Below, piece after piece: positions 1 through 227 of a stretch of 227 nt of DNA. How positions within the stretch are numbered: position 1 is the first letter of the stretch; every line of letters begins with the position of its first letter. The translations under genes were made by a program, and so were the position numbers. Source of the stretch: Escherichia coli (lineage in GTDB: Bacteria; Pseudomonadota; Gammaproteobacteria; Enterobacterales; Enterobacteriaceae); assembly GCF_003334335.1 (NCBI RefSeq), contig NZ_QOWQ01000235.1; one strand, given 5' to 3'. The notes under the pieces are model-generated. The model was not told the origin of the DNA. It ran no database searches and saw only the letters and a program-made list of their open reading frames with translations.

Positions 1-58
1 CTAGTGCGGCAATAATGTATGTTCCGATGCTGTAAATTTCCCCGGGTACCAGCCTTCC
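1..58 (-). other. Start of a non-collagenous C-terminal segment ([19 protein letters not shown]...) immediately after the last Gly-X-Y triplet; continues beyond window position 1.
   Basis: Gly periodicity is lost after G57 (next Gly are at residues 62 and 68). Composition switches to hydrophobic/aromatic residues (I, Y, L, A, V), and local GC falls from about 67% (positions 41-227) to about 40% (positions 1-40) by hand count. Confidence 0.55.
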
Positions 59-227
59 GGTTGGCCCTTGTGGTCCCTGTGGTCCGGGTTCACCTGTCGG
101 GCCCTGTGGACCTGTCGGGCCCTGTCTTCCTGTTTCTCCCTGCAAACCTCGTGGCCCCGTTTTACCCGCAGGACCTGCCGGACCAACCGGCCCCGGAACA
201 CCCTGTGCCCCCGCTGGTCCCCTTTCA
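1..227 (-). CDS. Partial CDS (both ends outside the window) for a collagen-like triple-helix repeat protein; reading frame has codons at window 226..224, 223..221, ... 4..2. No start or stop codon in the window.
   Basis: Hand translation of the reverse complement gives 75 codons with no stop. Gly occupies every third position for 19 consecutive positions (G3 to G57), giving 18 complete G-X-Y triplets, then periodicity ends at [19 protein letters not shown]. The truncated upstream codon ends in T, compatible with GGT (Gly), so the repeat probably continues beyond position 227. Such strict 3-residue Gly periodicity is not expected by chance. Confidence 0.8.
56..227 (-). repeat. Collagen-like Gly-X-Y coding repeat region (protein-level repeat, period 9 nt), probably continuing past the window edge at 227.
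   Basis: Triplets in order: [54 protein letters not shown], then a 19th Gly. X is Pro in 11 of 18 triplets; Y is Gln 6, Thr 5, Ala 3, Pro 2, Val 1, Arg 1. The + strand here is strongly C/T-rich, as expected for the antisense of GGN-CCN-NNN codons. Confidence 0.8.
93..125. repeat. Perfect 15-bp direct repeat (cctgtcgggccctgt on the + strand) at 93-107 and 111-125, separated by 3 bp (period 18 nt), lying inside the collagen-like CDS.
   Basis: Read directly from the sequence. On the coding (minus) strand the unit is cagggcccgacaggt, encoding Q-G-P-T-G twice within [12 protein letters not shown]. Confidence 0.85.

Follow-up and report, generated by a model that had tools for sequence, protein, structure and literature searches.

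The window and its reading frame

The window, by which we mean the whole 227-nt stretch of DNA analysed here, is 100% identical (227/227 nt) to a segment of Escherichia phage PhiR5_1 (PV340545.1, 46807-47033). This segment lies inside a CDS (45692-47263) whose product, a protein of 523 aa, is annotated as 'hypothetical protein'. Six-frame translation of the window yielded a full-length open and sensible frame on the minus strand only, with codons at window positions 226..2. The codon counts listed in the initial annotation of the window are compatible with this frame alone. Codon 372 ends with window base 227, and codon 448 begins with window base 1. The features of the window are as follows:

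2..226, minus strand: coding frame, codons 373-447 of the 523-aa collagen-like side tail fibre gene XSB41338.1 (Escherichia phage PhiR5_1)
50..226, minus strand: collagen triple-helix repeat, comprising the X-Y of one triplet and 19 complete Gly-X-Y triplets (57 residues)
2..49, minus strand: start of the non-collagen C-terminal domain, first 16 residues (aa 432-447); the domain extends to aa 523
86..150, minus strand: divergent cassette inside the collagen repeat, found in DNA and protein alignments with PhiR12_5, PhiR5_2 and PhiR12_3
81..116, strand not assigned: imperfect 18-nt tandem direct repeat, two copies at 72% identity, found by repeat search

The window thus encodes aa 373-447 of the fibre protein, covering the final 19 triplets of the second collagen domain and the transition to the C-terminal domain. 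Pfam model PF01391 (Collagen) matches residues 3-58 of the window peptide (E = 2e-10), in the part that terminates the second collagen domain (aa 313-431). Pro occupies the X position in 11/19 of the triplets and the Y position in 2/19; Y is occupied by Gln (6), Thr (5) and Ala (3), so that 11/19 triplets have either Gln or Thr at this position. An Rfam search with both strands of the window gave no match at E <= 1.

Alignment with the phage homologues shows two kinds of region. The stretch at 2..49, which opens the C-terminal domain, is invariant in four phage homologues. The cassette at 86..150 (~65 nt) is strongly different in PhiR12_5, PhiR5_2 and PhiR12_3, whereas the flanks on both sides are identical. 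Indels in the cassette among these three phages and PhiR5_1 measure 9, 27 or 45 nt and so correspond to whole numbers of Gly-X-Y triplets. Such a pattern suggests patchy recombination or slippage within the collagen repeat, and it agrees with the variation of collagen (Col) domain lengths by whole triplets in related proteins (Ghosh et al. 2012, PMC3368898). The 18-nt tandem repeat reflects the repeated GPT-GPQ / GPT-GEP coding units.

Two other stretches of the window are open as well. The ORF listing predicted a 66-aa ORF with a GTG start in another frame of the minus strand (window 1-201), and frame 3 of the plus strand stays open between about base 33 and base 227. However, such alternative ORFs are expected by-products of a G/C-rich repeat that is poor in stop codons, and neither of the two has a family match. 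The collagen frame, on the other hand, shows strict Gly periodicity over 19 triplets, has a Pfam match, corresponds to an annotated CDS and is conserved as protein across the homologues, with indels in multiples of three residues. There is next to no chance that one of the alternative frames is the real one.

The fibre protein and its relatives

The domains of the complete 523-aa protein are:

aa 1-134: PfN, PF08400 (Pfam E = 2.5e-42 in the PhiR5_1 gene)
aa 135-255: first collagen domain, about 121 residues, interrupted by GDPGGPPG (aa 187-194)
aa 263-304: Pf2 fibre repeat, PF03406 (Pfam E = 8.7e-16)
aa 313-431: second collagen domain, about 119 residues
aa 432-523: C-terminal domain (about 92-93 aa), without a Pfam match

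Uninterrupted Gly-X-Y runs cover aa 136-192, 194-256 and 315-431, and the protein ends in ...GIGLFQRAY. Its top PHROG matches are all tail fibre families (phrog_366, E = 5e-123). In PhiR5_1 the gene order is ...H-M-L-K-I-J-lom-[fibre gene]-tail fibre assembly, with J at 41401-44874. The fibre gene therefore occupies the stf position of phage lambda (J-lom-stf-tfa).

The resemblance to the side tail fibre (Stf) of lambda, or Ur-lambda, extends from this position after J and lom and before the fibre assembly gene to the sequence of two domains. Identity to lambda orf-401/Stf is 53% for the N-terminus (residues 1-129 of orf-401) and 56% for the Pf2 repeat. PDB chain 9E7M_Ta, the collar domain gpStfN through which the side fibre of Ur-lambda docks on the tail tip (PMC12617516), matches residues 1-91 (E = 4.6e-29). 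Outside PfN and Pf2, the fibre showed no similarity to lambda orf-401. In lambda, Stf has a coiled-coil shaft and a distal region that is gp37-like and binds OmpC (PMC12617516), whereas the PhiR5_1 fibre has collagen shafts and an unrelated tip of ~93 aa. The downstream genes differ too. The 'tail fibre assembly protein' gene of PhiR5_1 (20477-21055, in the numbering where the fibre gene is 18886-20457) encodes a DUF4376 protein (PF14301, E = 8e-20), whose similarity to lambda Tfa is not significant (E = 0.063). This protein may represent a different class of chaperone, paired with the C-terminal domain of the fibre.

A closer counterpart is found among the E. coli (EHEC) prophage collagen-like proteins, or EPclPs, for which four architectures have been described (Ghosh et al. 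2012, PLoS One 7:e37872, PMC3368898). Like the EPclC type, the PhiR5_1 fibre has the domain order PfN (PF08400), Col, Pf2 (PF03406), Col and a C-terminal domain other than PfC. The published EPclC example, ECED1_2081, has 520 aa and collagen domains of 118 and 117 residues (PMC3368898), close to the 523 aa and about 121 and 119 residues found here. The first Col carries the conserved G-X-P-G-G-P-X-G break (GDPGGPPG, aa 187-194), and a long PCoil, which EPclC proteins often lack, is absent: PfN abuts Col1 at residue 135, without the ~110-residue PCoil. EPclP collagen has Pro at about 48% in X and rarely in Y, where Gln, Thr, Ala, Lys and Arg are found (PMC3368898); the window triplets likewise place Pro in X and Gln, Thr or Ala in Y, with little Pro in Y. 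As in EPclC, the gene occupies the side tail fibre locus of a prophage. EPclA and EPclB differ from the fibre in that they carry PCoil and the PfC domain PF06820, while the Pfam search of the fibre protein gave no PF06820 and no match at all for aa 431-523. Placed by published architecture and sizes, the fibre protein fits the EPclP class with EPclC architecture.

EPclA forms trimers; its CD spectrum is that of a collagen and melts at 42 °C, and its dumbbell shape would suit a side tail fibre (PMC3368898). The trimer, CD and EM work was done on EPclA and EPclB, and a trimer with a collagen triple helix (CD maximum at 220 nm, co-operative melting) was demonstrated for EPclA and its Col-PfC fragment alone; for the EPclC type and its C-terminal domain, the study gives a catalogue only (Ghosh et al. 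2012, PMC3368898). By analogy, the PhiR5_1 fibre would act as a trimer, with the PfN collar as its anchor and the collagen triple helices as thin rigid shafts that would hold a C-terminal receptor-binding knob away from the tail. We infer the trimer, collagen-shaft and receptor-tip functions from the work of Ghosh et al. (2012) on the related EPclA, and the anchor from Ur-lambda Stf.

The C-terminal domain itself is presumably the trimerisation and receptor-binding tip, judging from these related fibres. A PDB sequence search with this domain returned a best match of E = 0.11, and an AlphaFold2 single-sequence model was unusable (mean pLDDT 37.7). Among 1.84 billion representative proteins it has eight relatives at >=91% identity, followed by six weak matches (E 2e-8 to 9e-4) to repeats in proteins of 758-3688 aa. 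In the one weak-match protein examined, the Pfam signals were invasin-D3-like but sub-threshold and the motif match spanned 35 residues, evidence too weak for a fold assignment. The clear and close homologues of the domain all come from E. coli prophages.

Two side observations concern this region. The C-terminal domain weakly resembles a motif of ~35 residues, present in 6-9 copies in large proteins whose Pfam signals are invasin-like but sub-threshold. In databases, the C-terminal region is represented mostly by 'partial' homologues of 110-177 aa, and the short contigs that encode them start within the collagen repeat. Gly-X-Y regions thus appear to interrupt short-read assemblies routinely, a point of minor practical relevance.

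The window was also searched for in other phages and in bacteria. Four sibling phages match it at 99.1% identity. Among 5,426 complete E. coli genomes, 36 contain a match, four of them at 100% identity; all matches in these 36 genomes are chromosomal and are annotated as tail fibre or prophage tail fibre N-terminal domain protein. The exact 227 nt are also present in a prophage of E. coli DETEC-S792 (NZ_CP116067.1), within a fibre of 677 aa. This prophage is non-lambdoid: it has an N4-gp56-type major capsid protein and is without lambda J. The exact window is thus found on at least two different phage chassis, the lambda-like PhiR5_1 and the N4-gp56-capsid prophage. The N-terminal part of the fibre is divergent and longer in the DETEC-S792, PhiR5_2 and PhiR12_3 copies, whereas fibres that differ in their N-termini have a near-identical Pf2-Col2-C-terminal part. 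From these comparisons, the distal fibre module has evidently been exchanged between unrelated E. coli phages. In E. coli prophages, those of the Stx type included, collagen-like tail fibre genes are exchangeable host-range modules, which is of minor practical relevance. A search of a literature library for the PhiR5_1 and PhiR12 phages found nothing relevant.

These matches bear on two other possible sources of the window. Its raw GC of 62.6% could be read as the genomic composition of a high-GC source, for example an actinobacterium or a GC-rich proteobacterium. The plasmid search with the window gave, as its sole match, 54 nt at 83% identity on a Bradyrhizobium plasmid, a weak similarity at the level expected by chance between collagen repeats. 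Against this stand the 100% identity to an E. coli phage and to E. coli prophages, the window GC3 of 0.427 and the 51.2% GC of the matching phage genome, which together make a high-GC source extremely improbable. The other candidate is a Firmicutes-type collagen-like surface protein in place of a phage fibre. Streptococcus Scl1/Scl2 and Bacillus BclA share with the fibre a hydroxyproline-free, bacterial-type Gly-X-Y motif in which Thr and Gln occur at Y, and their trimeric stalk presents a globular head, as that of the fibre would. The NCBIfam SclB, SclA and Lcl models match the collagen parts at E 1e-42 to 6e-34, and the BclA chain 1WCK matches at E = 4e-6. However, the NCBIfam scores fall far under the curated cut-offs (146 against 325 for NF038329, 131 against 400 for NF038330, and 117 against 500), and the Scl/BclA matches are confined to the low-complexity Gly-X-Y region, whereas the non-collagen domains are phage fibre domains. 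The fibre has neither an LPXTG anchor (its C-terminus reads ...GLFQRAY) nor exosporium targeting, its flanking domains and host are different, and every close homologue is from E. coli. We therefore see hardly any prospect that the window encodes a surface protein of this kind. The initial annotation had loosely likened the codon usage to that of Firmicutes or phages and had pointed to a host of moderate or low GC: the leads to a moderate-GC host and to a phage held, but the Firmicutes lead did not.

No result contradicts the identification of the window as a fragment of a phage side tail fibre gene. We hold with high confidence that it is an internal piece, antisense on the plus strand, of a side tail fibre gene of the collagen-like class, carried by a temperate phage or prophage of E. 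coli, that its high GC comes from residue composition, and that the product would be a trimeric fibre with collagen shafts. As such, the window is a previously sequenced member of a described protein family and contains nothing new.

Residue composition and synonymous choice

The overall GC of the window is 0.6256 (62.6%), in line with the hand count of about 62% in the initial annotation. The 75 codons of the collagen frame have GC1/GC2/GC3 values of 0.76/0.69/0.427, and fourfold-degenerate sites are 38% GC; for the collagen part (50..226) the three values are 0.83, 0.79 and 0.42. Gly (GGN), Pro (CCN) and Ala (GCN) make up 41/75 codons, and the GC of the window is high because these codons fix G or C at positions 1 and 2; the third position is free and, at 0.43, is no higher than the 0.54 average of the phage genome. 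The codon counts reported initially were accurate for Glu (GAA 4/4), Lys (AAA 1/1), Ile (ATT 3/4), Thr (ACA 4/6) and Arg (AGG 2, AGA 1, CGA 1; n=4). Only the Pro count was slightly off: CCA accounts for 6 of 14 Pro codons, with CCG 5, CCC 2 and CCT 1, and not for 7 of 15.

The fibre gene stands out in the same way within its phage. In the PhiR5_1 genome (51.2% GC) it ranks first among 79 CDS in both GC (0.618) and GC2 (0.618), and all others have a GC2 of <=0.513. Its GC3, by contrast, is average at 0.524 (mean 0.536, sd 0.096 and maximum 0.707 for the other PhiR5_1 genes of >=100 codons). The GC3 of the neighbours, which the initial annotation had proposed to compare, is 0.69 for J, 0.58 for lom and 0.55 for tfa; with a genome maximum of 0.71, none lies above 80%, the level that the initial annotation had named as counting against its reading. 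The collagen segments of the four homologues, which are not independent, have a GC of 0.69-0.72 and a GC3 of 0.43-0.49.

The codon pattern goes beyond chance. Synonymous codons were redrawn for the 75 residues of the window from one of two tables, built from 17 E. coli core genes (6,461 codons) or from the other 78 PhiR5_1 genes (14,713 codons). These tables are small, and the P values are uncorrected for multiple tests. The redrawn peptide has an expected overall GC of 0.68, against 0.627 observed. Expected GC3 is 0.54-0.56 (sd 0.056), against 0.427 observed (P = 0.029 and 0.009, lower tail, uncorrected), and 14.8-16.6 A-ending codons are expected, against 30 observed (P <= 0.0002, uncorrected). 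Amino-acid composition creates the GC excess, and synonymous choice reduces it. The initial annotation was therefore right that synonymous sites are not GC-biased, that the GC-richness is imposed by amino-acid composition (the same peptide would be about 68% GC with host or phage codons) and that the fragment should not be placed in a high-GC taxon. If anything, it understated its case: the synonymous sites of the window are more A-rich than host-core or phage-average usage.

The codon adaptation check that had been proposed points the same way. Measured by a CAI-like index against host-core usage, the window scores 0.48 and other phage genes 0.62-0.74. The codons AGA, AGG and CGA account for 27% of Arg codons in PhiR5_1 and for 4/4 in the window, which is unusual even by the standards of this phage, and a search for phage-encoded tRNAs for the rare AGA/AGG found none in PhiR5_1 or in the prophage segment. 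As the 75-codon window is A-richer than host and phage, a host GC read from it would come out somewhat low. More generally, the raw GC of a short fragment is unfit for taxonomic binning when the encoded protein is compositionally extreme, as with this fragment of 63% GC from a phage of 51% GC.

A minor observation concerns the Pro codons of the whole fibre gene. CCA is used for 18/47 Pro codons when the next residue is not Gly and for 1/18 before Gly (Fisher P = 0.013). CCA followed by GGN creates CCAGG, a CCWGG site of the Dcm/EcoRII type. The fibre gene contains 3 CCWGG sites, against about 5 expected from base composition. The scarcity of CCA before Gly could be due to site avoidance or a codon-pair effect in this small sample.

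Origin of the A-ending codons

The excess of A at third positions (A3) is distributed unevenly along the fibre gene. The PfN segment (aa 1-134) has a GC3 of 0.66 and an A3 of 0.19, like the adjacent upstream tail genes; A3 is 0.08-0.14 in tail genes H to J. After residue 134, GC3 is 0.42-0.53 and A3 is 0.28-0.40, including the non-collagen Pf2 linker and C-terminal domain, with values of 0.42-0.49 and 0.33-0.40, respectively, from Col1 to Col2. The compositional break is sharp (18886-19287 against 19288-20457, where the fibre gene is 18886-20457) and would fit a recombination junction where PfN meets the collagen. In the C-terminal domain the A3 excess reaches z=2.8-4.3. Elsewhere in PhiR5_1, int (z=5.7), HipD (z=7.0) and Rha have an A3 excess as large as that of the fibre gene.

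One explanation for this bias is the regional or ancestral composition of an exchangeable distal fibre module. The module moves between unrelated E. coli phage chassis, and its A bias would reflect its compositional history. The other explanation is adaptive: A at position 3 would have been selected to offset the G/C imposed on the first two codon positions. Since GGN tracts pair with CCN tracts, A3 would weaken the folding of mRNA or ssDNA and so keep the gene translatable and replicable. The predicted mRNA minimum free energy (MFE) of the window is indeed weak, at -87.9 kcal/mol, compared with -108.7 for phage codons or -107.2 for host codons. This difference of about 20 kcal/mol corresponds to a z of about 3, and <=0.3% of redrawn sequences are as weak. 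In addition, all collagen segments of the four homologues have low GC3 and high A3, but these homologues are non-independent samples. When the window's own synonymous codons were permuted, the MFE was unchanged (mean -86.9, z=-0.23), so composition alone contributes and not codon placement. The length and number of G/C runs are no lower than expected (P=0.23-0.32). The A3 excess is moreover present where there is no GC load, in the Pf2 linker and the C-terminal domain, and also in unrelated genes such as int and HipD. As the excess is also present in the C-terminal domain and in unrelated early genes, we favour regional composition over a collagen-specific cause, although we would put the chances of this reading at only about even. 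The adaptive explanation we regard as unlikely; relief of RNA or DNA secondary structure would be a possible, unproven benefit of the bias.

Two narrower candidates were rejected. Codon placement that minimises RNA structure is ruled out by the synonymous-permutation control, and avoidance of long G/C runs is not significant.

A broader form of the adaptive idea would apply to enterobacterial phage collagen-like fibre modules in general. These might share a selected GC-compensating code that is A3-rich, tolerates AGA/AGG/GGA/ACA and avoids CCA before Gly. Such a code would limit the folding of GGN/CCN mRNA or ssDNA and possibly pace translation for trimer registration. If true, the codon pattern of collagen fibre modules would be functional and not historical, but we consider this generalisation quite improbable.

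A final observation concerns the early region of PhiR5_1. A toxin-antitoxin-like pair, HipA/'HipD', adjoins cI (7915-9488 in the locus numbering of PV340545.1). Its GC is 0.39-0.41, and the A3 excess of HipD is the strongest in the genome. The pair looks like a recently acquired moron.
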